Notes: generated by a model not told the origin, from the sequence alone. Positions 9,527 to 39,614 are shown, counted from the first letter of the stretch. The stretch is DNA of 64,000 bases from Raja brachyura (GCA_963514005.1 OY740804.1:2294001-2358000); one strand, 5' to 3'. Made by a program: numbers and translations.

Positions 9527-10060
9527 TCACTGGATTGTCAGCCGGGCCAATTCTTCACATTCCCTATCACGAAAGGTGGTCCAGACACAGGAATATGTCC
9601 CCTCATCTTTCTCTTTTACACCTGTCAGGAGCAATGAGCCGTCAAATTCAGGAAAGGGATCTCGATGCATGAACTCCCAGCGGACATCATGGCCCTGATA
9701 TAGGTAAGGTATTCTAGTATGATTCATGGCAATTTCAGCACCATCTTTTCTCCATTTAACTACTCTGAGAGATTCGTAATCTTTGGATACTTTACAGGGC
9801 AGCGTAATAGAACCACCCAGAGATGCAACGAGCACCTTCATGTTAATCGATGATAGGTGATGACTGTATGTATCAGAATCTGTCTCGTTCGTGCATCTTG
9901 AAATCTGTTTAACGTTGACTTGCCGAGGAGCCCGTGCGTTCCACCCGGGCAAGTTTGCTTCCTCTCCCCATTCTCTGGCGATCGGACCTGCTCCAGTTCC
10001 GGAGACTTGCCACACCATCTCCACAAGGACCATGAATCCTATCCGTCTCTGCAGTCCCAT
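9527..10060 (-). CDS. Secreted single Ig V-type domain protein, copy 1 (177 aa; single coding exon)
   Basis: Signal-like N-terminus, propeptide ending RAPR. V-set hallmarks GGSITLPC, VKWRK, DGSLLL, DEGTYSC. Stop directly after the G strand. Acceptor cacccacag 4 nt before the ATG. Confidence 0.8.
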   Translation of the reverse strand: MGLQRRIGFMVLVEMVWQVSGTGAGPIAREWGEEANLPGWNARAPRQVNVKQISRCTNETDSDTYSHHLSSINMKVLVASLGGSITLPCKVSKDYESLRVVKWRKDGAEIAMNHTRIPYLYQGHDVRWEFMHRDPFPEFDGSLLLTGVKEKDEGTYSCVWTTFRDRECEELARLTIQ

Positions 10061-10629
10061 GTTCCTGTGGGTGAAACAACCTTATTGCAACTCAGTAGGA
10101 TTCATGATGACATTCTCTGAACCCGCCCAGAGTTGGGGAATCGAGAACCAGAGGACATCTGTTTAAGGTGAGGGGGGGAAAGATTTAATGGGAAACTGAG
10201 GGGTGACTTTTTTACACAAAGGGTGGAGGGTGTTTGGAACGAGCTGCCGGAAGATGTAGTTGAGGCAGGTACTATCACAATGATTAAGAAACAGTTAGAC
10301 AGGTACATTGATAGGGCAGGATTAGAGGGGTAAGGGCCAAACGCAGGCAGGTGGGTCTAGTTTTGATGGGGCAAGTTGGTGGGCGCGGGCAAGTTGGGCC
10401 GAAGGTCTCGCTGTATGACTCTATGACTCCATCACTTGTCCCACCCCGGTCATTCCTCCTTCTCCCTGGTCCTGTCTAGCAGAAGGTACAGAAGCTTGAA
10501 AGCGCGCACCACCAGACTCAGGAACAGCTTCTTCCCCTCTGCTATCAGGCTTCTGAACTGGGGGAACAGTGAACAGAGACAATCCCACCCCCATCACTCA
10601 CAGACACTTGAAGAATCCACAGGGTGGCT

Positions 10630-10880
10630 ACCAGCTCCTTTTATACCTACTGCCGGCTTCTCCTGACCTTCATTGCCTGCGCTCCCGTACATTCAACCAA
10701 TCACTGCCTCCCACGGAGCATTGGCGGGAGTCAGCCGCGACCTCTCCACCCTCTGCCAACTGTGTCCTTGCATCAGCCGTTAACGTTTAACAAGACCAAC
10801 GTCATCACAGCTGCCAGCGGCCAACCAGGCGCCCCACACATCCTGCTTGTGTCTCCACCACGTCTCGCTCTGGCCAACCA
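10630..10880 (-). promoter_or_regulatory. IgV copy 1 promoter with deleted exon 1
   Basis: ERSE at 10697-10715 and TATAAAA at 10639-10645, but only 7 nt to the donor at 10630-10631. Confidence 0.6.
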
Positions 10881-11397
10881 TCGCAGTTGAGGCAGAAACT
10901 ATCCCAAGGTTTAAGAAACAGTTAGACAGGAACAGGTATAGGTTAGATTTGGGGTACACAAAATGCTGGAGAAACTCAGCTGGTGCAGCAGCATCTATGG
11001 AGCGAAGGAGATAGGCAACGTTTCGGGCTGAAACCCTTCTTCAGACTGATCCCACTCCCATGAAGAAGGGTCTCGGCCCGAAACGTTGCCGATCTCCTTC
11101 GCTCCATAGATGCTGCTGCACCCGCTGAGTTTCTCCAGCATTTTGTGTACTCTCGATTTTCCAGCATCTGCAGTTCCTTCTTAAACACATAGGTTATTGA
11201 ATGGGTATGGACCAAACATGGACAGATGGGACGAGTGTAGCTGGGACATGTTGGCCAGTGTGGGCAAGTTGGGCTGAAGGGCCTGTTTCCACGCTGTATC
11301 ACCCTGTGACTATTACACTATGACATTAAATAAATAATGTTTATAAAATGAAACTCCACATAAATCTCATCTTCTCCTCTGGTTGTATACACAACAC

Positions 11398-11487
11398 TCA
11401 TTGACTGCAGCAGATAAAATGAATGTCACACTGGTGGTACCAGGGCACCTCTGGAAAATGTTCTTCTCAAGATGTGATTGAGAAGAC
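11398..11487 (-). pseudogene. Frameshifted CBM14 (chitinase last-exon) remnant, copy 1
   Basis: Reads Q-SHLEKNIFQR-CPGTT/(1-nt shift)/DIHFICCSQ*, aligning in register with [28 protein letters not shown]. It lies ~1 kb downstream of the orphan exon 10. Confidence 0.6.
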
Positions 11488-12450
11488 TATGTAACATGGA
11501 ACAGTACAGCACAGGATCAGGCCCTTCGGCCCACAATGTCCGTGCTGCACATGATGCCAAGTTAATCTAATCTCCTCTGCCTGCATGTGATCCATAATCT
11601 CTGTTCCCCGCATATCCATGAGATGTTTTAGATAAAGCCTCTATTGTAACTATTGTATCTGCCTCCACCACCCACAGCAGCGGGTTCCAGGCACCCACAA
11701 CCCTCTGTGCCTCGCGGCTGAGGCTACATTTAGATCCCAATGTTTAAGAAACAGTGAGTCAGGTACATGGATAGGACAGGTTTGGAGGGATATGTACCAA
11801 ACTGAATGTTCTCGAGAGAGAGAGTTAGATTTAGCTCTTAGTGCTAATGCAATCGAGGGATATGGGGAGAAAGCAGGAACGGGGCACTGATTTAGGATGA
11901 TCAGCCATGATCATTGTTGAATGGCTGTGCTGGCTCGAAGGGCTGAATGGCCTACTCCTGCACCAATTTTCATTGTTTCTATGTTTCTACACACTCCCAA
12001 TGAGGGTCGAAACTGGACTCTAATCAGCAGCCCCAACAGTGCAAGAGGCCAATGTAAGGGAGGCTCAGTGAGGCAGCAGTTGAGCTGTTGCCTTACAGCA
12101 CTAGAGACCCGGGTTCAATCCTGACTGTGGGTACTGTCTGTACGGTGGTTGTACGTTTTCCCTATGACCGTGTGGGTTTCCTCCGGGTGCTACAGTTTCC
12201 TGACAGATTTCAAAGATGTGCAGGTTTGTAGGTTAATTGGCTTCAGTAAATTGTCCCTTGCGTGTAGGTTAGAACTTGTGTACAGGCGATCACTCTAAAC
12301 AAATCTAAACTAAACTCGTCAACTCGACTCAACTCAGCTAAAGGCAACTCCATGACACTTAATTTTGCTGCTCAGACCTGTTAAAATATTCTGGATTGGA
12401 ACAAGTAGGGGCAGTTCAGTTTGACCTGGGATGCAAATAATAATGGTTCC

Positions 12451-12589
12451 GACTGTTAATGTTGAGGAGGGATTTCAATGCGCTGATCAAAGGATAAACA
12501 CCCTCTTTCCATCTTGTTCCACTAAAGTCATCAACATCTAGAGACCACAACATGGCTCCTCTACAGTTGTTGGTCATCAGCCACTGAGC
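12451..12589 (-). pseudogene. Orphan degenerate chitinase exon 10 (diverged paralogue)
   Basis: After acceptor ttccccag: AQWLMTNNCRGAMLWSLDVDDFSGTRWKEGVYPLISALKSLLNI, homologous to [44 protein letters not shown]. The conserved Cys is replaced by Trp, and there is no canonical donor at the equivalent position. Confidence 0.8.
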
Positions 12590-12821: not shown

Positions 12822-13217
12822 CCAATCACTGCCTCCCACGGGGCATTGGCTGGAGCCAGCCGCGACCAATCCCAACGCACCGCCGGCTCAGATTGAGTAT
12901 AAACTGTGAAACCAGCGCAGGTGCCAGGGCTGTGGTGGTGACGTGGCGTGGCTGGGACATCCAGTCCGAATGTTGGCCGGAGCGAGACGTGGTGGAGACA
13001 CAAGCAGGATGTGTGGGGCGCCTGGTTGGCCGCTGGCAGCTGGGATGGCGTTGTTCTTGTTAAACGTTAACGGCTGATGCAAGGACACGTTTGGCAGAGG
13101 GTGGAGAGGTCAATGAGGGTCTGGAGACACCGGGAGAAGGTATAAAAGGGGCGAGCAATGGCAGGAGATGGAAGTAAGACCGGCCTCGTCAGCCTGTGTG
13201 GAGACTCCGGAGCTGGT
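12822..13217 (+). promoter_or_regulatory. IgV copy 2 promoter and non-coding exon 1
   Basis: ERSE CCAAT-N9-CCACG at 12822-12840, UPRE-like TGACGTGG at 12939-12946, TATAAAA at 13141-13147, donor at 13216. Confidence 0.65.
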
Positions 13218-13836
13218 AACCACCCCCTGTGGATCCTTCAAGTGTCTGTGAGTGATGGGGGTGGGATTGTCTCTGTTCTCTGTTCCCCAGTTCAGAAGCC
13301 TGATAGCAGAGGGGAAGAAGCTGTTCCTGAGTCTGGTGGTGCGTGCTTTCAAGCTTCTGTACCTTCTGCTAGACAGGACCAGGGAGAAGGAGGAATGACC
13401 GGGGTGGGACAAGTCTTTGATTTTTTTGGTTGTAGATGGAGTCGCTGGTGGGGAGTGTGGTCCGTGTGATGGACTGGGCTCCATCCACAACTCTGCAATT
13501 TCTTGTGGTCTTGGGCTCAGAGCTGTTCCCAAACCAAACTGTGATGCAACCTGACAGTCTGCTCTCCGTGGTGCATCTGTAGAAGCTTGTGAGAGACATT
13601 AGAGACTTGCCGTATTTCCTTGGTCTCCAAGGAGGTAGATGCATTGGTGTGTCTCCTTGGCTGCCACTTTAATGTTGTTGGTCAACGACAGGTCAAAGCA
13701 ACTTAAAATAAACCAGGCAGGAGCTGAAGAGGCTGCACAGCGACATTGCCCAGTGTGGTGGCAGCAGCTTCAGAGAATGTCATCATGAATCCTACTGAGT
13801 TGCAATAATGTGACCCATTGTTTCACCCACAGGAGC

Positions 13837-14346
13837 ATGGGACTGCAGAGATGGATAGGATTCATAGTCCTTGTGGAGATGGTGTGGCAAGTCTCTGGAA
13901 CTGGAACAGGTCCGATCTCCAGAGAATGGGGAGAGGAAGCAAACTTGCCCGGGTGGAACGCACGGGTTCCTCGGCAAGTCAACAAACAAGAAACTCCAGA
14001 ATGCGGTGTTAAGCCAGATTTGACCAAGATGACGGAGATGACGGCACGCAAGGGTGGTTCTGCTACGCTACCCTGTGAAGTACCCACAGGGAAGGATGGA
14101 CCCACGCATTTTGTGGTCACCTGGAGGAAAGGGAAGGGGACACTGGGCGTGTTTACTAAAGGGAAAGGTCCAATCTATCCAGGGGGTGCCGGCCGCTGGA
14201 AGTTCATGAAACCAAACGTGGCTGAGACACGGGATGCCTCGTTGATCGTCACGGGTTTACGCGAGACTGATGCTGGGATGTATTCCTGTGCTTGGTTCAC
14301 TAGCCAAGGGGAATGTAGACTAAATGTCAAGCTGGCAGTGAAGTGA
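13837..14346 (+). CDS. Secreted single Ig V-type domain protein, copy 2 (169 aa; single coding exon)
   Basis: True start MGLQRW at 13837 after acceptor cacccacag (13831-13832). RVPR propeptide end; GGSATLPC, VTWRK, DASLIV, DAGMYSC. Confidence 0.85.
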   Translation: MGLQRWIGFIVLVEMVWQVSGTGTGPISREWGEEANLPGWNARVPRQVNKQETPECGVKPDLTKMTEMTARKGGSATLPCEVPTGKDGPTHFVVTWRKGKGTLGVFTKGKGPIYPGGAGRWKFMKPNVAETRDASLIVTGLRETDAGMYSCAWFTSQGECRLNVKLAVK

Positions 14347-15079
14347 AACCTCCCACTGATTCAGCACAGACCCCTCCAAGTGTCAGGAGCAACAGGCAGT
14401 GGCAGGTCAGCACAAACACAATAACATCCTTCATTATAAACTTGACACACTTAGGCCAACAACAGCATTATATATTGTAGTCACTGAATTCATCATGAGG
14501 GGAATAGAGGGGTGGACACTAAGCATCTTTTACCTGGGGTACGGGAATCAAGAACCAAGGGACATACATTTAAGGTGAGAGGGGCAAGATTTAATAGGAA
14601 CCTGAGGGGCAATATTTTCACTCATGGGGTGGTGGGTTTATGGAACTGTCCGGTGGGGCGGGAACAATAACAATATTTAATACACACTTGGTACAGGGAA
14701 AGGTTTAGGGGGATATGGGGTGAACGCAGTGCAATGGGACAGACCCTGCTTGCACGGGTAAATGTACCATTAATGGAAATAAACTCTGTTGAAGACAGCC
14801 GGTGGTGTGAGTGATTCTTTGTACGCCAGCATTGAAGTTGGGTGTGAACTTTGTTCAACTCTTGCTCACTACGGGCAGCATCGCCGGGTTCTATGAGCTG
14901 TGTCCATTATTGGTCATGACCACACGGGGACGGAACAACATGTGGAAAATCAGGAGTCTGCAGATGTTGCGAACAGGGACAAAAGTAAAGGGGAATGTTT
15001 TTCAGGAACAAAACAGGAACAAAAGTAAAGGCAGATGACACAACAGTAGGCGGGTTTGCAGATAGTGGAGTTGGTTGAT

Positions 15080-16242: not shown

Positions 16243-16399
16243 GGTGTAACATAGAACATGGAACAGTACAGCACAGGAACAGGCCCTTCGGCCCCCAATG
16301 TCCGTGCTGAACATGATCACCATGGAAAATTGGTTCTGACTGTCTACCCTATCTGTATCTCATACTTTTATAACTTGTGCAAGAGGCCAATGCAAGGGA

Positions 16400-19300
16400 C
16401 CCCATCCACGCTACTAGTTACATCCTCGAAAAATTCCACAAGATTCGTCAGACATGATTTACCTTTCGTAAATCCATGCTGACTTTGTCCAATGATTTCA
16501 CCACTTTCCAAATGTGCTGCTATCCCATCTTTAATAACTGACTCTAGCAGTTTCCCCACTACCGATGTTAGACTAACTGGTCTGTAATTCCCCGTTTTCT
16601 CTCTCCCCCCCTTCTTAAAAAGAGGGGTTACGTTTGCTACCTGCCAATCCTCAGGAACTACTCCAGAATCTAAAGAGTTTTGAAAGATTATCACTAATGC
16701 ATCCACTATTTCCAGAGCTATTTCCTTAAGTACTCTGGGATGCAGCCTATCTGGCCCTGGGGATTTATCGGCCTTTAATCCATTCAATTTACCCAACACC
16801 ACTTCCCGACTAACCTGGATTTCACTCAAGTACTCCTTTGACCCGCGGTCCCCTGCTATTTCCGGCAGATTATTTATGTCTTCCTTAGTGAAGACGGAAC
16901 CAAAGTAGTTATTCAATTGGTCAGCCATATCCTTGTTCCCCATGATCAACTCACCTGTTTCTGACTGCAAGGGACCTACATTTGTTTTAACTAATCTCTT
17001 TCTCTTCACATATCTGTAAAAACTTTTGCAGTCAGTTTTTATGTTCCCTGCCAGTTTTCTTTCATAATCTATTTTTCCTTTCCTAATCAAGCCCTTTGTC
17101 CTTCTCTGCTGGTCTCTGAATTTCTCCCAGTCCTCTGGTATGCTGCTTTTTCTGGCTACTTTGTACGCATCATCCTTTGCTTTGATACTATCCCTGATTT
17201 CCCTTGTTATCCACGGATGCACTACCTTCCCTGATCTATTCTTTTGCCAAATTGGGATGAACAATTTTTGTAGTTCATCCATGCAGTCTTTAAATGTCTT
17301 CCATTGTGTATCCACCGTCAACCCTTTTAGAATTGATTGCCAGTCAATATTGGCCAATTCACGTCTCATACCCTCAAAGTTACCTTTCCTTAAGTTCAGA
17401 ACCATTGTTTCTGAATTAACAATGTCACTCTTCATCCTAATGAAGAACTCGACCATATTATGGTCACTCTTGCCCAAGGGGGCACGCACAATAAGACTCC
17501 TAACTAACCCTTCCTCATTACTCAATACCCAGTCTAAAATAGCCTGCTCTCTCGTTGGTTCCTCTACATGTTGATTTAGATAACTATCCCTCATACTTTC
17601 CAAAAAATCCTCTTCCTCAGCGCCTGCCAATTTGATTCACCCAATCTATATGTGGATTGAAGTCACCCATTATAACTGTTTTGCCTTTGTCGCACGCATT
17701 TCTAATTTCCTGTTTTATACCATCCCCAACTTCACTACTACTGTTAGGTGGCCTGCACACAACTCCCACTAGCGTTTTCTGCCCCTTATTGTTTCGCAGC
17801 TCTACCCATACCGATTCCACATGCTCCAAGCTAATGTCCTTCCTTTCCATTGCGTTAATCTCCTCTCTAACCAGCAACGCTACCCCACCTCCTTTTCCTT
17901 TCTCTCTATCCCTCCTGAATATTGAATATCCCTGGATGTTCAGCTCCCAGCCTTGGTCACCCTGGAGCCATGTCTCCGTGATCCCAACTATATCATACTC
18001 ATTAATAGCTATCTGCACGTTCAACTCATCCACCTTATTACGAATACTCCTTGCATTGAGACACAAAGCCTTCAGACTTGTTTTTACATCCCTTTTTTTC
18101 CCTATATCGTTGGTGCCAATATGCACCACGACAACTGGCTGTTCACCCTCCCCCTCCAGAATGTTCTGCAGCCGTTCAGTAACATCCCTGACCTTTGCAG
18201 CAGGGAGGCAACATACCATCCTGGAGTCTCTTTTGCGTCCGCAGAAACGCCTATCTATTCCCCTGACAATTGAATCCCCTATTACAATAGCCCTTCCCCT
18301 CTTTTTTCCCCCATCATGTGCTGCAGAGCCACCCATGGTGCCATGAACGTGGCTGCTGCTGCATTCCCCTGATGAGCCATCTCCCTCAACAGTATCCAAA
18401 ATGGTAAACCTGTTGAGTAGGGAGATGACCGCAGGGGACTCCGGCACCACCTGCCTACTGCTTTGCTGGCTATTGGCCACCCGCTCCCTTTCTGTCCTCT
18501 TACCTTTTACCTGTGGCATGACCAACTTGCTGTATGTGCTGTCCACAACTTTCTCTGCGTCGTGGATGCTCCAGTATGAATCCAGCCGCAGCTCCAATCG
18601 TTCAATGCTTTTTTAATTTTTTTAAATTTCAAAATAGACTTTATTAAAGTAATTAATATATACAGCACATCAACCGTGCGAAAAATCCATCCGACATTTT
18701 CGGAGGCACTATAAATTGTTCCATACAGTCTATACACATTTTTTCAAATTTCGCGAATCGATCCCCCACCCGTGCCACTCATGTGGCCACTGGCATGGGT
18801 TATCTTCCTTTATTTTGAGGGGCGTCCCCACCATACCGTGCCCCCCATGTCCAGCAGCGGAAGGACCTTAGACTGTGGCCCTCCCCCACCGAGCCTTGGC
18901 GTTGGCTGCACAGGGAGCTTCAGTGCGTCCCTCAGCACGTACTCCTGCAGTCTGCAGTGGGCCAGTCGGCAACATTCCCCGACGGACATCTCGCTCTGCT
19001 GGGTGGTGAACAAAGCTCGGGCAGACCAGAGAGCGTCTTTCACCGAGTTGATAACCCTCCAGCAGCACTTGATATCAGTCTCTGAATGTGTCCCTGGGAA
19101 CAGTCCGTAAATCACAGAGTCCTCTGTGACGGAGCTGTTTGGAATAAAGCGTACCAGGGACCCTTGCATTTTTCTCCAGACTCTTTGGGCAAATCCACAC
19201 TCTGCAAAGAGGTGGGCAACCGTCTCCACTCCATAGCAGCCGTCCCGAGGGCAGCATGCAATGCGGTCTGCCAGGAGCTGCAGCTGGACACACTTCCTGC

Positions 19301-19620
19301 AAACGTAGTCACCAGGGACACCGACCATATCCCTGATCTCCCACATGTTGCAGGCTGAGCAAGGCACGGGACCAATCTCCACTGACACCTTACTCTATTA
19401 AATATATATATTTTTTAAATTTATTTTTTATTAAACACAAAACTTTATTCTTTAAACTTTACTAATAAATACTAATAAATATTGAATCCCTAACACCCAG
19501 AATCCTTAGCTCCCAGAATCCTTAAACCTGTAGGCAGAAATGTAGAAATGTAAATCCCGGGTTGCAGCCAATCAGCTGCTTCCTCTGGTCCTCTTCATCA
19601 GCCTCACGTGCGGCACTTTA
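16400..19620 (-). mobile_element. CR1-clade LINE, internally deleted and 3'-truncated
   Basis: ORF1 Cys-rich start (CSACNMW...CRKC) and SGNH esterase (IGDSIVRG, HIGTND) fused by deletion to the ORF2 APE (CLNARS, ITETW, MGDFN, SDH) and RT start (KSPGPD, NYRPVSLTS, QHGF). Confidence 0.9.
18609..19258 (-). mobile_element. 5'-truncated L1/Tx1-type LINE inserted into CR1 ORF1
   Basis: C-terminal CCHC motif (CPRDGC..ETVAHLFAEC), A-rich tail at ~18609-18630, TSD CAATGC (18603-18608 and 19259-19264). Confidence 0.8.
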
Positions 19621-23194: not shown

Positions 23195-23938
23195 CCTTCA
23201 CTACTGATGGGTTTTCAATCACTACTGATGGGTCTTCCCTATAGGGGGGTTGGGGGGTGGAGCACTAGGACCCAGCAGAATCGTCACTACTGATGGGTCT
23301 TTCCTATAGGAATGTGGGTTTGGGGGGGCACTAGGACCCAGCAGAGTCATCATCAAAATTATAGAGCTCTCTTTGATCTTTGGTCATCACCACTGATGGG
23401 TCTTCCCTATGGAGGGGAGGAGGGGGGCACTAGGACCCAGCAGAGTCATCACCACTGATGGGTCTTCCCTATAGGAGTGTGGGTTTGGGGGGGCATTAGG
23501 ACCAAGCAGAGTCATCACCACTGATGGGTCTTCCCTATAGAGGGGAGGGGGGGCACTAGGACCCAGCAGAGTCATCACCCCTGATGGGTCTTCCCTAAAG
23601 AGGGGAGGGGGGGCACTAGGACCCAGCAGAGTCATCACCACTGATGGGTCTTCCCTATAGAGGGGAGGGGAGGGCACTAGGACCCAGCAGAGTCATCACC
23701 CCTGATGGGTCTTCCCTATAGGAGTGTGGGTTTGGGGGGGCATTAGGACCCAGCAGAGTCATCACCACTGATGGGTCTTCCCTATAGAGGGGAGGGGGGG
23801 CACTAGGACCCAGCAGAGTCATCACCCCTGATAGGTCTTCCCTATAGAGGGGAGGGGGGGGCACTAGGACCCAGCAGAGTCATCACTACTGATCGGTATT
23901 CCCTATAGGGGAGTGGGAGGGGGGGGGGGGGGCACTAG
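23195..23938. repeat. G-rich ~60-bp minisatellite, ~11 units
   Basis: Unit GCACTAGGACCCAGCAGAGTCATCACCACTGATGGGTCTTCCCTATAG plus a variable G-rich spacer. Confidence 0.95.
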
Positions 23939-25808: not shown

Positions 25809-28800
25809 TTAAGGCCAGTTGCAGCATTTACAGGATGAGTCGAAGACCAATCCTGCGGCACAGCTCTTCACGTAGGTCCGACCATCATCGCACTGGTAGA
25901 ACTTGTTCTTGTTCTTGGGATCGGGGAAGGTACCATTCGCTTTGCCCTGACAGAAGCCACTGCCTCCACCACCGCTGCCTCCACCACCGCTAGGAGCATC
26001 AGTAGGTGGGACCGCCGGCTTCAATGTTGTCTTGGATGGGACGCAAGCTGCAGAGAAACACAGTTTGTTATGTTCTCCTAAAGTCTTAGGAGAATTAGGC
26101 GATTTAGCCCATTGACTTACCCCACCATTCAATCATGGTTGATCTATCCCTCCCTCTCAACCCCATTCTCCTGCCTTCTCCCCATAAACCCTGACACCCG
26201 AACTAATCAAGAATCTGTCCATCACCGCCTTAGAACGCAGGTCCACAAAGTATGAATATCCCAGTCAATGGGATTATGCCACTGAACCCCCCTCTCACCA
26301 ACTCCAGAGGGATCCTGACCTCACATCTACCCCAGATGCTGGTCTATAAAAAGAGACACAATGTGCTGGAGTAACTCAGTTGCTTGTTCTCTATACCCAC
26401 CACTCCATGTGTGTAAAACGTAGCTATCACACCTAGTCTTACCACTATCTGCCTCCACCACCCCCGGTAGCGTGTTCCAGGCACCCACCACCCTCTGTGT
26501 GAAAGACTGGTCCTGCACATCTCCATTACCTGCAGAGATGCCAAGGCCAGAGTGCAGAGTGTTGATGAGGGGGTAGGGTCCCTGGTGACAGAAGGCACCA
26601 GAGAAGTCATCCAGAGCCAGATCCCAGACCATAGCTCCTCCATAGTTGTTCTTCTTCAGCCACTCAACCTGGAAGACACGGTTCACATCTTTACACCAGC
26701 ATCCCTCAGTCAATAATGGTGTCTATGATGCGCCGGAGAAAGCTTTTTATCGGGATTCATCACAACACGGTTTGGGAATGGCTCCATCCAAAACCCGCAG
26801 GAAATTGCAGGGAGTTGCTGACGCAGCCCAGACCATCACGTAAACCAACCTCCCTTCCATTGACTCCATCTACACCTCGCGTTGCCTCAGCAAGGCCACC
26901 AGCATAATCGAGGACCAGTCTCATCCCAGCACCAGAGAAATAAAACAGAAATTCCAAGTTTCCCCGATGTGAATCCTAACCCCTTTCTCCTGCTTTCTCC
27001 CCATAACCCCTGATACCTGAACACCATGAGTTTATGGTGAGCTGGAAATATTTTGTAGAATGTAATGATTCCAAGGATTTTGAAGCATAATTCTGGAGCT
27101 CACTGTTGGAAACTCTGCAGTAGATATTGAGATAAACGAGACCACGATGGCTCACGTGGAAAGGGTGGAACTTCGATGGTCAGATGTACCTTGTCTCCGA
27201 AGCTCTTGACGTTGTCATAGCCGACCCATATTCCATTCTTGAAGGCGTACGGGGTGTCCTGTGGGGCGTTCCATTCGGCGGTGGCACCATTCAGGAACCC
27301 GCAGATCTGTTCAGAGAAGGAGATGTTAGGGACCAATCTTGTCGAAGTGGAAAAAAATCATGAGAGGAACCGATCAGGTAGATGCAAAGTGTCTCTTGTC
27401 CAGTCGGGGAATCGACAACCAGAGGACATAAGGTGAGGGAGAAAGATTTAATAGGAATGGTGCTGGTTCGAAAGGCCGAATGGCCTACTCCTGCACCTAT
27501 TGTCTATTAAACCTGAGGGGTAACCATTTGACACCGAGGGTGGTGGGTGTATGGAACAGATGGGTGGAGATAGTGACAAAAGCTGGAGGGGAACAGGAGA
27601 CAAAATAGTGTCAGATACTGATAGAAGAGGAACAGAGAGATGCGCAAAGAGAGGAGGAAAGAGATATGTGAAGAGAAGGGAGAAAGACATGAAAGAAGGA
27701 TAGAAAGAGGAGAGGAGGGAAAGATATATAAAGAGAGGAAAGAGAGATATGTCCAGAAAGAGGAGGAGAGAGATGTAAAGTGCGAGGGAGGGATGTGGAG
27801 AGAAGGAGATAGCGGGGAGGGCAAATAGGAAGGGGAGGATAGAAGGGAAATGGGGATCTCTGAGAGAAGAGGAGGGGAACGGAGAACGTGGGTGTGCGAT
27901 GTTTCGGATGGAGATCCTTCCTCATGTGTCCATCTATGTTGTGTGTGGTTATTCAGTATTGGATTGGAAGATAACATTGAGTAAAGGGCCACGCGGTTGG
28001 ATTAGTCGGTAGGTACAGTACCTCATAGTAGGCCAGGAAGCCGGCTTGGCGGGTGAATTTGCCGGCTGGTCCAGCACCTCCTGCTGGGGCACCCACGGCC
28101 GTGCTGGACGAGGTCAGTCTGAAAGTGTGTCCGTAGGTGGGGAAGCCCACATTCAACTTGTCCACTGGAGCCCCCTTGCTCTTCCAGTAGTTCATGGCAT
28201 ATTCCTGCAGGGACACAGTTGGCATCAAAGGACTTTAGGCTCATGTTTAACATTAGGTTTATTATTGTCACGTGTACCGAGGCACAGTGAAAAGCTTCCA
28301 AACAGATCAGATAATACCGTACATAAATACAATCAAGTCAAACTCAGGTACAATAGGTAGAACAAAGGGGAAGATACAGAGTGCAGAATATAGTTCTCAG
28401 CATCGTAGCGCATCAGTTCCACAGACAAAGTCCAATGTCCACAATGGGGTAGAGGTGAATCGGACAGTACCCTAGCTTAAGGAAGGACCGTTCAGAAGCC
28501 TGATAGCAGAGGGCAGGGAGCTGTTCCTGAGTCTGGTGGTGCTCGCTTTCAAGCTTCTGTACCTTCTGCTAGACAGGACCAGGGAGAAGGAGGAATGACC
28601 GGGGTGGGACAAGTCTTTGATTCTGTCGGTTGCTTTTCTGAGGCAGCGTGAAGTGTAGATGGAGTCAATGGTGGGGAGTGGGGTCTGTGTGATGGACTGG
28701 GCTCCATCCACAACTCTCTGCAATTTCTTGTGGTCTTGGGCTCAGAGCTGTTCCCAAGCCTAGTTGTGATGCAACCCCACTGTCTGCTCTCCATGGTGTT

Positions 28801-31800
28801 TGGAACAGTTATATGGACTCGGCTAAATAGGTTTATAAATTCGGGGAGAGGAAATGAAAAAGTTGAGCAGGATTTATTTTTCTTGAGCACTTACCACATT
28901 GAAGTGGGTGTTGGTGTAATCATTGTCATTAGGCAGGGCATAGAGGGGGCTGTTCTCTCCAGTAACGTGGCTCCAGGGACCATAGAAATCGTAGGTCATC
29001 ACGTTGAAGAAATCAACTACCCTGCAAGAGAGGAGACCGGGTCACCCTGATACTCCATGCCCCAAATTAACATCAGAACACAGAACAGTACAACACGTGA
29101 ACAGGCCCTTCTACCCACAATGTCCGTGTCAAACATGACGGCAAGATAAACTCATCTCCTCTGTCTGCACGTGATCCGTATCCCTCCATTCCCTGCATAT
29201 CCACGCGCCTATCCACAAGCCTCTTAAACAACACTATCGTATCTGCCTCCATCACCACCCCTGGCAGCGCATTCCAGGCATCCACCACCCTCTGTGTGTA
29301 AAAAAAACATGCACATCTCCTTTAAACTTGAACATGGTGCCAAGTCCATCACTTATCTACATGCACATCACCAACATCCCTCCATGCCCAGCATTATCAT
29401 GTGCCCATCTAAAAGTATTTTAAATGCACTAATGTATCTACTTCAACCACCACCCCAGCAGGTTCTGGCTGTCTACCCTATCTATGCCTCTAGTGATTTA
29501 TAAACTTCTATCAAGTCTCTCCTCAACCTCTGATGTTCCAGAGGAAACAATGCAAGTTTGTCCAACCTCTCCCTGTAGCTAATCCCCTCTAATCCAGGCA
29601 GCGTTCTGGTAAATCTCCTGTGCACCGTCTCCAAAGCCTCCACATCCTTCCTGTAATGGAGACAACCAGACCTGCACGCAATGCTCTAAATACCTCCTGG
29701 CTAAAGACCGACAGAGCTGCAAGTTGGCTTCCTGACTCTCACGCTCAATGCCCCGACCAATGAAGGCATTGAATGCATTAGGGTTGTGGATGGATCTCAA
29801 TCAACGTGCTGGAAGCTCCCACCATTGGAATTCTGGAGCGATGAAAAACTAGTTCAAATACGACGTCAAACTGGCTAAACTCCCGAGATGAAAGCCCACA
29901 GGAAAAGTTGGGTTTCTTTGTGTGTAGAAGGACACTCACTTGCCGAGCTGAGGAACCTCGTAGCCAGTATCAATGTTGCTCATCCCACCAGCAACGGCAG
30001 CTGAGAGCAGCAGGCGTGGCTGTCCTGTGCTTTTCCCCTCGGCCTCGAAGGCAGCCATCAGCTCCTGTGGGTCAGAGAGATCGAGGGCTCCTTTAGCAAG
30101 AGGTCAAGTCTAGTCTTAGCAAGGGTCCCGACCCGAAACGTCATCTATACTTTTTCCCCAGAGATGCTGCCTGACCCGCAGTGTTACTCCAACACTTTGT
30201 GTCAATTTCAAGTTTGGTTTAGTTTGGTTCAGAGATGCAGCGTGGAAACAGGCCCTTCGGCCCATCGAGTCCACGCCGACCAGCGATTACCCTTTCACTC
30301 TAGTTATATCCTACATACTTGGGACAATTTACTGAAGCCAATTAACCTACAAACCCACACACATTTGGAGTGCGGGAGGAAATCAGAGCACCTGAGGTCA
30401 CGGGGCGAACGTACAAACTCCGTACAGACAGCATCCATGGTCAGGATTGAACCCGCGTCTCTGGCGCTGTGAGGCAGCAACTCTACCCCTGCACCACCGT
30501 ATCGCCCAAGAGTGGGGAAGAAGCTTTTTAATCCAAACCTCAAAATGGTGCTTGGTTCAAATTTTATTAAATTCTTAATTTCTGAATTCTTAAATTCCTT
30601 TGTGTAATCTGTGAAAATCTGTCCTTTGTGATCTTGACAATAAGTTGCATTTATTGGATAAATTTTCAAGTCATAGAGTTATGCAGCGTGACAACAGACC
30701 CTTTGGCCCAACCTGCCCGCACCGACCAATGTGTCCCATCTACACTAGTCCCACAAAGTGCTGGAGTAACTCAGCGGGTCAGGCAGCATCTGAGGAGATA
30801 AAGGATGGGTTTGGCCTGCGTTTGGCCCATTTATTTTAACGAAACCCATAGTGAGATGTACTTGACCGCACCTGAGCCAGGACAGTGTAGAGATGCTTGT
30901 CAACAGGGGGACTTCCTCGAGATCCAGGATATTCCCAATCGATATCCAGACCGTCAAAGCCGTACCCTCTCAGGAAGGCGATGACTGACTTGATGAAGAT
31001 TTGCCGAGTTCCTGATGAGGCGACCATCGCGGTGAATCTGCAGGTGGGGTGAATGTGGGGAGAGGAGTTAGAAATGAAATGTGCCGGAGACACGAGGAAC
31101 GGCCAGTGACCCAGTGACTCTGCTGTTATATCCTGTCATGTACAGATTCATCCAAGCTTTTGTTAAATGCTCAAGTGGTTAAAGAATTACTCCTTTCTCC
31201 TGTTGTCATCTGAAGTTTCATGTGCAATTATTCTTTTTGAAAATAGCGTTTAGTTTAGTTCAGAGATACAGCGCAGAAACAGGCCCTTCGGCCCACCCAG
31301 TCCGCACCGACCAGCGATCCCCACACACTAACACTATCCTGCACACACAAGGGACAATTTACATTTATACCAAGCCAATAAACCTACAAATGTGTACGTC
31401 TTTGGAGTGTGGGAGCAAACTGAAGATCTCTGAGAAAACCTAGGCAGTCACAGGGAGAACGTACCAACTCCACACAGACAGCACCCGTAGTCAGGATCCA
31501 ACCCGGGTCTCCAGAGTTCCACTAGTACCACTACGCCACACACTATTGAAAGCATTCTTTCTGAAAATTATATTCTTTTACTTTTTGGCAAGCAATATCC
31601 TATATTGTTCAAATTACAATTTGCAAACTGCTCTGTTTAATAATACTCCTGAAACAGTTCACTGTAAAATTATCCCCTCGATATTTATCACTTGGGATAT
31701 CATTACTAGAGCCAGGATGTTTAAGCACTAAAAAATTCTGAAATAGGCAGGCAAAAAGGCATAATAAAATTATTTAAAAAAGCATGAGAAAGGCATTTAT

Positions 31801-34800
31801 TGACATAAAAAGGCATGTATTTCCACCACCAAAATATGGTTAAAAATGATAATGTAAAGTTATAGTACATTAAATGATCAAAGTTGCCTGGTTGCACATA
31901 ATTACTAGCATTTTTTCAAATTATCTGGTGTTAAACTATGCCGTGTGTCAGACAGAATATGCTTCAGTTGTGAAAAACTTCTTTCTACCCCAGCTGAGGT
32001 CACTGGTGCATACCTGAAACAAGCTACAGACTCTATATTCATGTCAATGTCTTGTGCATTGCAATTACCTTTGAGAACTTTAGCTACGTTTTGTATTTCT
32101 TCAAGATCTTTGTCAGCTAAAATCACTCTCTCACGTTTTCCTTGTATATCTTCACCGACACCGCCAGGAACTTTACGAATAGCGTCAGTTACTTAGTGGA
32201 AAACCTGCAAGTTGTTCATTAATGTTTCGCCACCTTTCTCAAGGGAAGTGGATCGTGAAAAAGGCATCTTGCCAAAATCATCAAAAAAGGCATGAAACGC
32301 CACATGGCATTAATGGCAAAATTACCATACACACCCACTGTTTACATCGGGCACATGGAACTACAGGTGCTGGTTTACAAAAAGAAAAGACACAAAGTGC
32401 TGGAGTAACTCAGCGAGTCAGGCGGCATCTCTGGAGAACATGGATAGGTGCCGATTCCTGTTAAGACTGTTCTTCAGGCTGAGTTACTGAGGAGTTACTC
32501 CAGCACTTTGTGTCTTTCAATATTCATTCCATATGTCAATTGGAAAATAACTCTTATTTTTTTTAATCTAATGCTAACGTAAAAAGTTTCCATCTTACTT
32601 CTGGGTGCCAAAGTTCCATCCTCCAATGGACAGCAGAGTCTTGAGGTTTGAATTCCTTAAAAAAATGGACAAAATGTGGTTTTAGAATGATGTTTAGAAC
32701 AACAGAACATTTTCAGAACTTCTCAGGAACTTCTGGATCTTCTGTTTTTTCGCCCCTTTGGTGTTCCGTTTCATTGAAGGGATTTGCCTCCGTCTGGATC
32801 TCAAGGGGGTCACAGAAAATGAGGTACAAGTTCACGCAACAAGGCTTCATAAGCAAGGGCCAGTCTCACTCTGTGGGCTGAAGGGCCTATTTCCTCAATC
32901 TGTGACTCAATGATTCTGTTGGCCTGTCCAATAGCTTTCTCCTGAATATCCCCCTGGACCAAGTCACCTTTCAGACAGGGGAGGTGGATGAGATGAGAAA
33001 ACCTTCAATAAATGGATGTGTAACAGGGTCATGTCAAAGACCCTGCTGACCATTGATCACCTGTTCACACCAGTTCAATATTATCCTACTTTCTCATCCA
33101 CTCCCTATGCACTTGGGGCAATTTGTAGAGGCCAATTAACCTAGAAACCCTTTGTAATGTGGGAGGAAACCGGTAATCTAGAGAAAACCTACACCGTCAC
33201 AGGGAGAACGTGCAAACTCCACAGAAACAGTGCCCGAGGTCAGGATCGAACCCAGGTCTCTGGCGCCCTGAGGCAGTGACTCTACCCGCTGCCCCACTGT
33301 GCCGCCCGGTACGTATAACAGATGGATTCTTGCCACATACTCTTCAAAACAACTTGTTCACTTAGATCGACCATTTTGAAGAGTTTGAAATCCAATGTTC
33401 ATTAAACACTGGATGTCCCTTCACTTACAGCAAGGACCAGGGAATTCATGGTTAAATTTAACCCAATCAGACCCAAATCAGCAGGGTTCCACTCCACCCA
33501 TTTGTCTCCATCGAGCTGTATCTCTGAGAAGTTAGGCATCACCTTGGTACTTAAAGTCTAAATTATCCCACTGAACCATCCTCTCACCAACTAGAGAGCG
33601 GCCCTGACCTCCCATCTACCTCATTGGAGACACTCGGACTATATGTAATCAGACTTCACTGGACTTTATCTTGCACTAAACATTATCCCCTTCATCCTGT
33701 GTCTGTACATTGTAATCATGTACAGTCTTTCTGCCGACTAGTTAGCACGCAACAAAAAGCTTTTTGTTGTACCATGGTACACGTGACAATAATAAACTAA
33801 ATTAAACTAAATTAACTGTGGAATATGGGTTATGGGATATTGGTTTGGGGAATATCCAATACAATGACTGGTTAACACGCAACAAAAACTTTTCACTGTA
33901 CCTCAGTACAGGTGACAATAAACTAAACTGGACAATGTAAACATTGCAACAATGCCCGACATTTGAGACACAAGGTTAAGCCCCTGTCCCATTTTCCCGA
34001 GTTACTCACGAATTCTCCCGAGTTTTCCCCTTGATTCAAACTCGGAGATGCCAGCCGTAGCTACTCAGGGCTATTTTTTTTACTCGTGGACATTTTTCGA
34101 CATGCTGAAAAAACGTCCCGATTTACCTGATTCCCCCGAGTACCTACGGCTGGCATTACGAGCCGCTACGAAGTATCTGCGGACTCCTACCGACTCGCTA
34201 CGGACATTCTCCGAGTTTGAATCAAGGGGAAAACTCGGGAGAATTCGTGAGTAACTCGGGAAAGTGGGACAGATGCTTTAGTATTTATTCAGCAACTGTA
34301 CTTGTTCTTCAGGCTGTTGATCTCATGGTAGAGTTTTGGGTCGTTCCATTCATAGATGGCGATCTGATTGCTCTTCATTCCAGCGAAGGCGTAGATGATG
34401 TGGGTGCAAAGGCAAGGGTCCACGTTCTGGGGCATGTATTTACCCTCTCCTGGTCTGTACTGCGCCCAGTTGGTGAAGTAACACACCAGCCTGTAGGCAG
34501 AGCCTGGGCAAGGGAGAGACAGGGCGGTCAGGACAATATCTCTGTGGCACTCACACAAAGCAAAGCAAGGCTGCAAATGAACAAAGACTCACCCAGTTGC
34601 AGGCAGGCCAGTAAGACCACCGCTGGAACAGAAAACAGAGAGCAGCGTGTTAGGATTACGACAAACCGTAATAAGTCAGGGATTACGGGGACAGACGGGG
34701 AGAATGGGATTGAAAGGGAAAGATAGATCAGCCATGATTGAGTGGCTAGAGTACACTTGATGGGCCGAATGGCCTAATTCTGCTCGCATCAGTTATGAAT

Positions 34801-36133
34801 TTATGAAACCTTGGCTGTATTACGGCCTCTACACAATGAAAATGTTATATAAGTGTTTGGGAAACTATGAAGGTCTATCTTGTGGGCAGCACGGTGGAGC
34901 AGCAGTAGAGTTGCTGCCTCACTGTGCCAGAGACCCAGGTTCGATCTTGACTATGGGTGTTGAACGTGTGTGGAATTTGTACATCAACCCTGCTAGTATA
35001 AATTGATTGTTCTGTTTCTGGTACATATGACAATAACACACCCTTAACTCCCTCTCCCTGTGACCATGTGGGTTTTCTCCGGGAGCTCTGGTTTCCTCCC
35101 AAATCCCCAAAATGTGAGGGATTGAAGGTTAGTTGTCCCTCTGTAAAATTGTGAAGGGCTGAACAGTGGTCAGCATGGACTCTGTGGGCCGAAAGGCCTT
35201 GTTTCTATACTGTATCATTAAACTAAACCTTTCCTATCCATGTACCTGTCTGAATGTCTTTTAAATGTTATTATACTTGCCTCATCTACCTCCTCTGGCA
35301 GATCGTTCCATATACTCACCACCCTCTGGGCAACAGGTTAGAGTCATAGAGTCACACAGTCATAGAGTCAAACAGGCCCTTTGGCCCAATTTGCCCATGC
35401 TGACCAAGATGCCCCACCTAAGCTTGTCCCAGTTGCCCCTGGATTCACCTTTAAATTTTTTCCCACTCACCTTAAGTCAATGCCCTGTAGTTTTAAATTC
35501 CCCTTCCCTGGAGAAAGGCAGAGACCATACTTCATATCTCAGCCGCTTGTGATTTTCTAAATGTCTCTGATGGTATTTACAGAGTGCTGGAGCAATTCAG
35601 CGGGTCAGGCAACTTCTCCGGAGAGAAGAAATGGGTGACATTTCGGGTCCGTTGGAAAATACAAAATATTAAGAAACTACGAACTGCAGCAGTTGATTTA
35701 CACCAAAGATAGACACAAAGTGCTGGAGTATCTCAGCGGGTCAGGCAGCATCTCCGGAGATAAGAGTTGGGTAGAATTGAGGCCCTTCTTCAGACACCTT
35801 CATAATAAAACTTGGGAAACAATTTAATCTGTTCTCATCCTCATTTAATTTCTAAACCTGATTCTTTCAAAAAAGTATCCCAATATCAAAAGGAATTAAA
35901 CAGCAAAAGGCTCTTACGGAGCGAAGGAGATAGGCGACGTTTCGGGTCGAGACCCTTCTTCAGTCTGAAGAAGGGTCTCGACCCGAAACGTCGCCTATCT
36001 CCTTCGCTCCTTAGATGCTGCTGCACCCGCTGAGTTTCTCCAGCTTTTTGTGCAACCCTCGATTCTCCAGCATCTGCAGTTCCTTCTTTAACAGCAAAAG
36101 GCTCTTACCTGTTCCAAGAAGTAACTTTGCCAT
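25809..36133 (-). CDS. chia: Acidic mammalian chitinase-like GH18 chitinase with C-terminal CBM14; complete, 11 coding exons, 469 aa
   Basis: GT-AG exons read by hand (minus strand): 36133-36109 (MAKLLLGT), 34622-34593, 34503-34302 ([15 protein letters not shown]), 32655-32599 ([13 protein letters not shown]), 31037-30872 ([12 protein letters not shown] catalytic motif), 30064-29940, 29021-28895 (VMTYDFYG), 28204-28022, 27306-27190 (WVGYDN), 26668-26530 ([13 protein letters not shown]), 26047-25809 (linker + CBM14 ...CKCCNWP*). Total 1410 nt in frame. Exon sizes 25/30/202/57/166/125 match the vertebrate CHIA/CHIT1 layout. Orthology (CHIA vs CHIT1-like) is not resolved. Confidence 0.93.
27590..27880. 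repeat. Purine-rich (GA) low-complexity tract in chitinase intron 8
   Basis: Almost exclusively A/G on the plus strand. Confidence 0.8.
31710..32330 (-). mobile_element. hAT-type DNA transposon remnant
   Basis: Same transposase C-terminal fragment (31905-32126), with an internal deletion relative to the first copy. Ends approximate. Confidence 0.6.
33979..34277. mobile_element. PIF/Harbinger-type MITE (same insertion in the duplicated segment)
   Basis: Same TIRs and TTA TSD, at the same position next to chitinase exon 3. Confidence 0.8.
35918..36089. mobile_element. Palindromic Penelope-type insertion with hammerhead-like cores in chitinase intron 1
   Basis: ~93-bp near-perfect palindrome (35918-36010) carrying CTGAAGA-stem-GAAACGTC on both strands, flanked by a 19-bp duplication. 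A related inverted pair is at ~10955-11185. Confidence 0.6.
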
Positions 36134-36168
36134 CTTGTTACTGTTGCTGACTAGACCTGAGCTGCCTC

Positions 36169-36175
36169 TTTTATA
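36169..36175 (-). promoter_or_regulatory. TATA box (TATAAAA) of the complete chitinase gene
   Basis: TATAAAAG on the minus strand ~35 nt upstream of the ATG at 36133. GATA-type motifs lie further upstream (~36222, ~36284). Confidence 0.65.
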
Positions 36176-37730: not shown

Positions 37731-38099
37731 CCATAACCCCTGACACCTGTACAAATCAACAATCTATCCATCTCTACATTAAAAATATCCATCGACCTGG
37801 CCTCCACAGACAGCCTTCCATGGGAATGAATTCCACAGATTCACCACCCTCTCACTAAAGAAATTCCTCGTCATCTCCTTCTTAAAAGCTGCCCTTTAAT
37901 TCTGAGGCTGTGCAAGCCTTGTGTCCGAGACTCCCACACTAGTGGATTACGTGCGGGCTGAAGAGATTAATTTAACCTCTCAGCATCATGATCAACATCA
38001 TGTTCAGCACGGACATTGTGGGCCGAAGGGCCTGTACCTGTGCTGCACTGTTCCACGCTCTGTGTTACATCGTTTTCTCAATCACAGTGGAGTGGGTGG

Positions 38100-38408
38100 G
38101 TGGCCAGAGCGAGACGTGGTGGAGACATAAGCATAATGTGTGTGGCGCCTGGTTGGCCGCTGGCAGCTGGGATGACGTTGTTCTTGTTAAACTTTAACGG
38201 CTGATGCAAGGACGCGTTTGGCAGAGGGTGGAGAGGTCGCGGCTGACTCCGTCCAATGTTCCGTGGGAGGCAGTGATTGGTTGAAAGTACGTGAGTGCAG
38301 GCAATGAAGCTCAGGAGAAGCCGGGAGTTGGTATAAAAGGAGCGAGCGATGGCAGGAGATGTGAACAAGACCGGTCTCGTCACCCTGTGTGGAGACTCCG
38401 GAGCTGGT
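38100..38408 (+). promoter_or_regulatory. IgV copy 3 promoter and non-coding exon 1
   Basis: ERSE (CGTGG-N9-ATTGG) at 38262-38280, extra CCAAT at ~38253, TATAAAA at 38332-38338, donor CTG|GTAACC at 38407. The block is conserved in all three copies. Confidence 0.7.
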
Positions 38409-38641
38409 AACCACCCTTGTGGATCCTTCAAGTATCTGTGAGTGATGGGGGTGGGATTGTCTCTGTTCTCTGTTCCCTCAGTTCAGAAGCCTGATAGCAG
38501 AGGGGAAGAAGCTGTTCCTGAGTCTGGTGGTGCGCGCTTTCAGGCTTCTGTACCTTCTGCTAGACAGGACCAGGGAGAAGGAGGAATGACCGGGGTGGGA
38601 CAAGTGATGGAGTCATAGAGTCATACAGCGAGACCTTCGGC

Positions 38642-38778
38642 CCAACTTGCCCGCGCCCACCAACTTGCCCGCGCCCACCAACTTGCCCGCGCCCACCAAC
38701 TTGCCCGCGCCCACCAACTTGCCCGCGCCCACCAACTTGCCCGCGCCCACCAACTTGCCCGCGCCCACCAACTTGCCC
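38642..38778. repeat. 18-bp tandem repeat (CCAACTTGCCCGCGCCCA) x~7.5
   Basis: Perfect array in the intron of IgV copy 3. Confidence 0.95.
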
Positions 38779-39086
38779 CATCAAAACTAGACCCACCTGC
38801 CTGCGTTTGGCCCTTACCCCTCTAATCCTGTCCTATCAATGTACCTGTCTAACTGTTTCTTAATCATTGTGATAGTACCTGCCTCAACTACATCTTCCGG
38901 CAGCTCGTTCCAAACACCCTCCACCCTTTATGTAAAACAGTCACCCCTCAGTTTCCCATTAAATCTTTCCCCCCCTCACCTTAAACAGATGTCCTCGGGT
39001 TCTCGATTCCCCAACTCTGGGCGGGTTCAGAGAATGTCATCATGAATCCTACTGAGTTGCAATAAGGTTGTTTCACCCACAGGAAC

Positions 39087-39614
39087 ATGGGACTGCAGAG
39101 ATGGATAGGATTCTTGGTCCTTGTGGAGATGGTGTGGCAAGTCTCTGGAACTGGAACAGGTTCGATCTCCAGAGAATGGGGAGAGGAAGCAAACTTGCCC
39201 GGGTGGAACGTACGGACGCCTCGGCAAGTCAGCGATGAACAGCTTCCAAGATGCACGGACAAGCCAGGTTATGCCGGTCATCGCCCTTTAATCATTAATC
39301 TGCAGGTGGTCGTTGTGTCTCCGGGTGGTAGTATTACGCTGCCCTGTAAAATATCCAAGCATTACAGTAAACCTAAACTCGTCACATGGAAAAAAGGCAA
39401 TGTTGCCATTGCCACGTATCACGGTGTGTTTTCAGTGGGATATCAGGGATCTTATCCCCACTGGAAGTTCGCGAATGACAACGTGTTCAGACGTCGGGAC
39501 GCCTCGTTGGTACTGTGGGGGGTACAAGAGAAAGATGCCGGGACGTATACCTGCATTTGGTCCACTTCTCATCATGGAAAATGTCATGTATTGACCTGGC
39601 TGAAAATAGAGTGA
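39087..39614 (+). CDS. Secreted single Ig V-type domain protein, copy 3 (175 aa; single coding exon)
   Basis: MGLQRW leader, RTPR propeptide end; GGSITLPC, VTWKK, DASLVL, DAGTYTC. Acceptor at 39081-39082. Confidence 0.85.
   Translation: MGLQRWIGFLVLVEMVWQVSGTGTGSISREWGEEANLPGWNVRTPRQVSDEQLPRCTDKPGYAGHRPLIINLQVVVVSPGGSITLPCKISKHYSKPKLVTWKKGNVAIATYHGVFSVGYQGSYPHWKFANDNVFRRRDASLVLWGVQEKDAGTYTCIWSTSHHGKCHVLTWLKIE

Follow-up and report, generated by a model that had tools for sequence, protein, structure and literature searches.

A clustered family of single-V genes

We analysed a 64,000-nucleotide stretch of the Raja brachyura genome (GCA_963514005.1 OY740804.1:2294001-2358000; hereafter the window), in which a first-pass annotation had described a family of small proteins with a single immunoglobulin (Ig) V domain, interpreted below as putative soluble binders of nectin type. 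The three intact open reading frames (ORFs) that it listed were recovered in an ORF scan: copy A on the minus strand (9527..10060, 177 amino acids), and copies B (13837..14346, 169 amino acids) and C (39087..39614, 175 amino acids) on the plus strand. All three matched the Pfam V-set domain above the cut-off, as anticipated from the V-set scaffold. The shared N-terminus of 48 residues was also recovered, with 5, 7 and 4 differing positions per pair, and the DNA alignment of the three copies shows near-identity up to codon 48, followed by a sharp fall. Identity resumes at the stop codon, as had been noted, for about 20 nucleotides, is then lost, and returns at a common poly(A) block.

The protein encoded by copy A is predicted to consist of a signal peptide at approximately residues 1–21, a pro-segment that extends to the PR|Q site (46/47) and a V domain with four cysteines at positions 56, 89, 158 and 168. 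No transmembrane-like stretch was found in the window copies (best 19-residue hydropathy past residue 25 of 0.55–1.49), nor was the [FW]GxG motif (0 of 3), with strand G being germline-encoded, and the reported lack of a membrane segment and of a J-like FGxG thus stands. Copy C is 81% identical to the Leucoraja protein XP_055510991.1. Independent public DNA contigs, from other samples, confirmed copy A over 435 nucleotides and copy C over 500 nucleotides, with 0 differences in both cases (run X1). The contig depth in the public DNA runs was 43–374 over the prepro region and 8–10 over the mature part of copy C, as expected of a front end shared by many copies, with the proviso that depth is not copy number. 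The depth ratio of the A-mature to the C-mature contigs was 3.4 in organism A and 1.3–1.7 in organism B (runs X1, X2 and X5), which gives a weak hint of a copy-number difference between the two.

The first-pass annotation had proposed that copies be counted more widely, and a genome-wide search with a 201-nucleotide probe identified 16 copies rather than three. A region of 186 kb around the window holds 15 of them; the other is dispersed, 25 Mb away on the same contig. Two protein searches with mature domains, and a third with an electric-ray relative from Narcine (see below), recovered the identical 16 places. Twelve copies are intact, L014 is broken by one stop codon and L015 by two, and L005 and L006 have an altered end. 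In the latter two (G000:C24:2250178 and G000:C24:2217102, both on the plus strand), the poly(A) block and the final residues of strand G are gone and the frame runs on to 223 amino acids; the 55 further residues include a hydrophobic stretch that may be a newly acquired membrane anchor or may reflect decay. L007 and L008 (G000:C24:2365649-2376602) are inverted duplicates of each other whose mature domains are identical, and the promoter and exon 1 of L007 were not found within 2.5 kb. Around the dispersed copy, no Pfam matches were obtained for 106 of the 134 stop-to-stop frames of at least 95 amino acids in 100 kb.

Judged from their sequence, the family members look like two-exon genes, with a TATA box, a short exon 1, a GT-AG intron, a coding exon and a poly(A) signal. 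The motif TATAAAAG is present upstream of the ATG in 14 of the 16 copies, a GT donor in 15 and an AG acceptor 4 nucleotides upstream of the ATG in all 16, with an intron length of 488–645 nucleotides in the nine copies measured. An AATAAA block and a GT-rich stretch are conserved in 13 of the 15 clustered copies. The earlier claim that the whole coding sequence lies in one exon holds for the segment from ATG to stop; it did not foresee the predicted upstream exon, separated by an intron of 537–645 nucleotides in the window copies, from which the Leucoraja RefSeq models, with an identical junction, add 31 residues.

In copy A, the predicted promoter and very short exon 1 (10602..10792, minus strand), with TATAAAAG at 10638-10645, an HNF1-like palindrome at 10779-10792 and no upstream ATG in exon 1, are followed by a predicted GT..AG intron of 537 nucleotides (10065..10601, minus strand); the AATAAA signal (9377..9382, minus strand) lies in the conserved poly(A) block at 9373-9388, with the GT-rich stretch after it. 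The promoter and exon 1 predicted for copy B (13058..13247, plus strand; HNF1-like palindrome at 13058-13071, TATAAAAG at 13141-13148) contain an out-of-frame ATG, and the predicted GT..AG intron of 585 nucleotides (13248..13832, plus strand) has the same junction as the Leucoraja models; AATAAA is at 14778..14783 (plus strand, block at 14772-14787). For copy C, the predicted promoter and exon 1 (38185..38437, plus strand) include an HNF1-like palindrome (38185-38198), CCAAT-like boxes, TATAAAAG (38332-38339) and an in-frame exon-1 ATG that would add 31 residues if used, followed by a predicted GT..AG intron of 645 nucleotides (38438..39082, plus strand) and, past the coding exon, AATAAA at 40996..41001 (plus strand, block at 40990-41005). 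The 31-residue extension was considered as an essential part of the protein and rejected, the exon-1 ATG being in frame in 6 of the 16 copies, out of frame in 4 and missing in 5, with no donor within 2.5 kb in the remaining copy. Since so few copies have it in frame, the likely start is at MGLQ.

Transcription, which the first-pass annotation had made a test of its proposal, is represented by a single protein. This Logan protein, P0011 (202 amino acids), clusters with the Leucoraja proteins, ends at the family stop and is encoded by a 900-base contig in which exon 1 is joined to exon 2. About 1,100 bases would be needed with an intron of 488–645 nucleotides, and P0011 is therefore probably a spliced transcript, and the sole sign of family transcription. 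A search of public runs listed no RNA run for this species; the runs compared with the copies, four in one comparison and three for copy C, behaved as genomic DNA and carry no information on expression.

Relatives and domain type

Full-length relatives in the databases comprise uncharacterized RefSeq proteins, eight from Leucoraja erinacea and one from Rhinoraja longicauda, and P0011. A HMMER search added a relative from the electric ray Narcine bancroftii (XP_069798310.1, 218 amino acids), named ‘nectin-1-like’ in RefSeq, which is 31% identical to copy B from the signal peptide through strand G and contains the PRQV site and the four cysteines of the skate copies. None of these 11 relatives has a membrane anchor. 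No shark member was found among the best 150 of 2572 HMMER matches, which were mostly multi-Ig proteins, and the only whole-profile matches among these 150 were P0003 and P0090. The A3 profile word search added only P0008, an unrelated protein with two V domains, the Narcine query matched itself alone among 71 candidates, and the ESM Atlas returned generic V-set, OX-2 and unnamed clusters (0.92–0.95), none with a named family. A literature search by topic and by family accession, covering papers outside subscription, gave no description of the family, and the main text of the little skate genome paper contained 0 matches for nectin, chitinase or immunoglobulin. We conclude that this single-V family of batoids is real, and apparently annotated but unnamed and undescribed, in agreement with the earlier failure to place it in a described family.

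By its sequence features, the family domain is of the nectin/PVR type and not of the antibody type, domain 1 of nectin/PVR (CD155) being the closest V domain in sequence and predicted fold. The best sequence matches of copy B in the PDB were to the poliovirus receptor (PVR), and the family profile placed JAML, PVR, CD226 and nectin-2 near the top. In the structure model of copy C, the V domain spans residues 68–174, with pLDDT values of 82–93 over residues 71–175 and below 50 for residues 1–55. The top fold match of this model was nectin-1 domain 1 (Z 15.6, root-mean-square deviation 1.5, 106 aligned residues), and the first four ranks were taken by nectin-1 and nectin-3, two each. When the Narcine protein was compared to this genome, the next matches after the family itself were four nectin-like V exons. 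Two results weigh against the nectin assignment, namely that the top PDB match of the profile was JAML, level with PVR and CD226, and that CD200 followed close behind the nectins in the fold search (Z 14.4). We therefore regard descent of the family from a nectin as likely but short of proof.

The four nectin-like V exons are L033 (C1034), L034 (C51), L035 (C882) and L036 (C26). Those on C51, C882 and C1034 are close paralogues, which suggests an expanded group of membrane nectins. Another Ig exon, CEACAM-like by eye, is located about 1.2 kb from L034.

Nectin and PVR proteins have a V-C2-C2 architecture with a membrane anchor and a cytoplasmic tail. For the batoid family, no C2, membrane or cytoplasmic part was found in a search whose control was weak for C-type exons; it also differs in that the leader and V domain share an exon, that a pro-segment and two additional cysteines are present, and that this genome has 16 fast-diverging copies. 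Pairing in the PVR family is described as depending on two motifs, the lock A-X6-G and the key T(Y/F)P (PMC10486284). The Narcine protein has kept both the lock A-X6-G and the key TYP. Among the 20 skate-type sequences, an [AG]-X6-G lock is present in 9, with a strict A in 3, and absent in 11; of the window copies, copy B has G-X6-G, and A and C lack the lock. The key was found in none of the 20, copy B included, as compared to all four nectin V exons of this genome. These patterns bear on the possibility that the proteins are soluble regulators of the host nectin network, which bind skate nectins or receptors like CD226, TIGIT and CD96 and tune adhesion or killer-cell signalling. The lock and key in Narcine, the partial retention of the lock in skates and the presence of at least four nectin-like V exons in the genome are in its favour, but the absence of the key from all 20 skate-type sequences and of the lock from 11 of them is not, and the omega of about 3 at 30% of sites (see below) would exceed the drive usually exerted by a conserved host ligand. 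We regard such a role as unlikely.

The family stop aligns with the codon that is split by the splice donor of nectin V exons, and a GTGAAA motif overlaps the stop at the position of that donor. The ORFs might thus be first exons of membrane receptors or V segments, spliced or rearranged to exons of C, J or membrane type, or joined to the chitin-binding exon of a chitinase in a VCBP-like fusion, and the location of A-type copies, which precede chitinase genes in the same orientation, is compatible with this. Yet GTGAAA is missing in L007, L008, L012, L015 and L016, the poly(A) block follows the stop in most clustered copies, an anchor is absent at the end of each of the 11 database relatives, and each chitinase gene has its own CBM14 exon, as last exon. 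The splicing into C or transmembrane exons that the first-pass annotation had named as grounds for refutation left no sign in the Leucoraja models, in P0011 or in a 224-kb search with 109 Ig-protein queries, which found no other Ig exon and whose control recovered V-type exons only. No recombination signal (heptamer-spacer-nonamer, with the general consensus used for the search) was found within 200 nucleotides of the stop in the 15 clustered copies. We consider this alternative very improbable. The family is likewise unlike the V segments of Ig and T-cell receptor genes in having the leader and V domain in one exon and a germline-encoded strand G without [FW]GxG.

The MDIR/CD300/SITR proteins of skate and teleosts resemble the family in being multigene and V-domain based, and SITR is reported to be soluble and CD300 domains to have two disulfides (PMC3031540). 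The YWCR motif given in that source is not found in the batoid family, which has Y(S/T)CxW instead. Its extra cysteines are located before strand A and in strand G, and the proteins have one domain and a pro-segment, with no membrane forms found.

Positive selection and probable gene conversion

We compared DNA identity by segment in six subtype representatives (15 pairs; L007 was dropped as no donor was found). The promoter (93%), exon 1 (93%), the two intron ends (91% and 96%) and the prepro region (94%) are all much alike, as is the poly(A) block (95%, 10 pairs), in comparison to only 59% for the mature domain. Since codons with multiple hits can inflate the synonymous distance estimated with NG86, fourfold sites were compared as well; in 21 pairs, 24 of 478 sites (5%) differ in the prepro region and 124 of 466 (27%) in the mature domain. 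Moreover, the prepro distance is the same whether copies of different main clades (5.3%) or of one and the same clade (5.2%) are compared, whereas the mature distance follows the tree (39% between and 19% within). The dispersed copy is less homogenised, with differences at 16 of 120 prepro and 41 of 176 mature sites in all seven comparisons; the two are equal in the comparisons to L007, L010, L012 and L015 (13 of 70 and 20 of 107), but not in those to L013, L001 and L005.

In the tree of mature domains, copies of this genome pair with copies from Leucoraja and Rhinoraja, and a clade of the nine rows of the Leucoraja cluster was rejected (p-AU 3.5e-39). The subtypes are thus old and common to skate genera. 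Residues 1–37, in contrast, are 99% alike among Leucoraja subtypes and 92% alike between species. Silent sites and the non-coding flanks are as well conserved as the prepro region as a whole. The best reading of these sequences is therefore that the cassette has undergone gene conversion, which probably keeps both flanks and prepro alike. A similar restriction has been described for CEACAM32, where conversion is limited to the leader and intron (PMC7042247). What speaks against conversion is the tree of the flanks, which has a star-like shape and fails to reject the topology of the mature domains (p-AU 0.163).

This result also removes the ground for one claim of the first-pass annotation, which had taken the conserved prepro region and hypervariable mature part as the architecture of toxin and antimicrobial-peptide families. 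In conotoxins and frog skin peptides, a near-invariant signal and pro-segment precede a hypervariable mature part, and the identities above resemble this pattern. In the batoid genes, however, the conservation reaches the promoter, the intron and silent sites and is no evidence of a toxin layout, and the mature part is an Ig domain of 13–15 kDa. A toxin-like or directly antimicrobial effector of gland or mucus, kept inactive by the pro-segment until cut, would fit the prepro layout, the retention of the PR|Q site from Narcine to skates and the cationic nature of several mature domains (isoelectric point of 8.4–9.5 in 7 of 10), but the charge spans −15 to +8, and we know of no venom spine in skates. 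Such a function appears quite unlikely.

Codon site models, in our own implementation, were fitted to 119 codon columns from nine copies. The M0 model gave an omega of 1.37, and M2a was favoured over M1a (twice the log-likelihood difference of 33.4, P 5.5e-8), with 30% of sites at an omega of 2.96. The nine best sites (68, 69, 95, 97, 98, 118, 131, 135 and 161 in copy C numbering) are scattered across several loops and strand edges. Gene conversion between copies can inflate site-model tests, which tells against this result. In three young B-type copies, the mature domain has accumulated 18, 23 and 19 replacement changes per pair as compared to 1, 1 and 0 silent changes, equivalent to about 30 replacements to 1 silent change on a star tree (P 0.0024), and a comparison of L003 to L004 gave 19 differences in 354 bases of the mature part, 5 in 516 of the intron and 2 in 600 downstream. 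The mature domain is under positive selection. The first-pass proposal of germline-encoded and rapidly diversifying single-V proteins, predicted to be secreted and belonging to no named family, is upheld by these tests, by the uncharacterized status of the full-length relatives and by the lack of recombination signals.

Strong positive selection combined with a secreted layout would also suit reproductive recognition proteins, whether of sperm, seminal fluid, egg jelly or uterus, whose diversity is driven by sexual conflict or by the need to recognise the species. Nectins have a part in sperm development. The copy C orthologue in organism B differs at 4 mature residues. The pregnancy-specific glycoproteins (PSGs), secreted offshoots of CEACAM to which we return below, are reproductive proteins (PMC5594555). 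On the other side, old subtypes that persist side by side across genera fit a panel of binders better than a single species-recognition protein, and a reproductive role is in our view a candidate, though a rather unlikely one.

Chitinase neighbourhood and proposed function

The placement of the family in a chitinase cluster was borne out, as all 67 GH18 chitinase exon matches in the genome are on the contig of the window, at 1.72–2.45 Mb, where they surround the V-domain genes. In this expansion (G000:C24:1.72-2.45 Mb), the catalytic exon alone has about 14 matches, some with stops. A tandem unit of about 31 kb, consisting of a chitinase and copies A and B, has been co-duplicated, with units 97–99.5% identical. 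In the window, one chitinase gene with its own CBM14 last exon is located at 25812..36175 on the minus strand (first exon by eye, with ATG at 36133 and TATA at 36175), and the 5' exons of a second copy, about 97% identical and part of the tandem unit, are at 1..2955 on the minus strand. The first of these chitinase genes and copy C are arranged head-to-head about 2 kb apart, and the promoters of both (36175, minus strand, and 38332, plus strand) contain TATAAAAG. Copies A and B are likewise head-to-head, with TATA boxes 2.5 kb apart. It is possible that head-to-head promoters use shared enhancers.

Elsewhere in the window, the segment at 48604-62000 contains two or three copies of a retrotransposon with a reverse transcriptase and a tyrosine recombinase, which we take to be DIRS-like by its layout. 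Broken remnants of the long terminal repeat type (integrase core) and the long interspersed element type (reverse transcriptase) are located at 4231-6533 and 16368-19346, and a degenerate tandem repeat with units of about 60 nucleotides at 23218-23927.

Co-duplication in the tandem units, together with the two broken copies and the two with an altered end, could mean that the V genes are functionless passengers or decaying retrocopies of chitinase duplications. This is highly unlikely, given that 12 of the 16 copies are intact, that omega is above 1, that four cysteines are invariant, that subtypes are common to genera and that a full-length relative occurs in an electric ray.

A set of nectin-type domains that are old, diverge and lack the key would suit a role as soluble decoys or recognition molecules directed against microbes or parasites, by analogy to the mammalian PSGs, and we assign this reading a probability of about 0.5. 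The PSGs of bats, horses, primates and rodents are the nearest working analogue: they are described as IgV offshoots of an adhesion and pathogen receptor, ended by a stop codon close to a splice donor that has been lost and accompanied by a poly(A) signal, and those of bats are secreted, expanded, positively selected and proposed to act as decoys (PMC5594555). Secretion of the batoid proteins is predicted. The family differs from PSGs in its domain, which is nectin-type and not CEACAM-type (mouse CEACAM15 domain 1 ranked 44th in the fold search, with Z 12.0 versus 15.6); PSGs moreover have separate leader, V and C exons, and no pro-segment is described for them. Like the PSGs, the family is an expanded and positively selected set of IgV domains, secreted by prediction and probably an offshoot of a receptor. 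To our knowledge, the placental expression of PSGs has no direct counterpart in egg-laying skates.

In the mechanism that we propose, a nectin-like V exon would have lost its link to the downstream C and membrane exons, with the stop now at the former splice-donor site. The product would be secreted by means of residues 1–21. Cleavage at the PR|Q site, which electric ray and skates have in common, would then release a free domain of 13–15 kDa. In this domain, the additional pair of invariant cysteines, one located ahead of strand A and the other within strand G, would likely form a second disulfide and so close an N-terminal loop of variable length. Gene conversion between neighbours would homogenise the promoter, exon 1, intron ends, prepro region and poly(A) block, while selection would hold the mature domains apart. 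With the nectin key lost, the skate copies would probably not pair in the manner of nectins and may bind foreign ligands instead. An R-x-x-R site is common, not universal, being absent in L005, L006, P0001, P0009 and Narcine, and the Narcine leader looks more canonical than that of the skates.

Several points weigh against the decoy interpretation. The signal peptide was predicted from hydropathy alone and has a Glu in its core. The record of P0011 states neither organism nor library type, and we infer its RNA origin. Positive selection acting on a secreted protein is as compatible with a role in reproduction as with one in defence.

As to where the proteins act, the chitinase neighbourhood and the HNF1-like promoter palindrome prompt the guess of a site in the gut or mucosa, and counting against it is that the window contains 5 such motifs versus 2.45 expected, a number reached in 9 of 100 shuffles and thus not above chance. 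VCBPs of amphioxus and Ciona are reported to be secreted germline V-domain proteins that act in the gut with chitin (PMC4757023, PMC4008424). Similarly, the V genes here are interleaved with chitinase genes that carry CBM14. In contrast to VCBPs, the single V domain ends in a stop and is not fused to a chitin-binding domain, CBM14 being the last exon of the chitinase, and VCBP3 ranked only 50th in the fold search (Z 11.7). A bolder and rather doubtful version of the decoy reading would be a gut repertoire of rays and skates, in which germline single-domain binders, derived from the virus-receptor domain of a nectin, have a cleaved pro-segment and a hypervariable N-terminal loop closed by a disulfide. 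With the same doubt, they would be secreted in the stomach together with the co-duplicated chitinases, so that V recognition and chitin binding come from separate genes in a jawed-vertebrate counterpart of the gut immunity of protochordate VCBPs. The association of the V genes with chitinases may be only co-duplication.

If the decoy reading is true, batoids would have followed independently, starting from a nectin, the path that some mammals took from CEACAM1, turning a cell-surface receptor exploited by viruses into an expanding panel of secreted, fast-evolving binders. The family would offer a clean case of gene conversion in which a domain under selection is spared within a single exon, and a natural Ig scaffold of small size (13–15 kDa) with four cysteines. 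In the oldest lineage of jawed vertebrates with adaptive immunity, it would also represent a so far undescribed branch of innate recognition.

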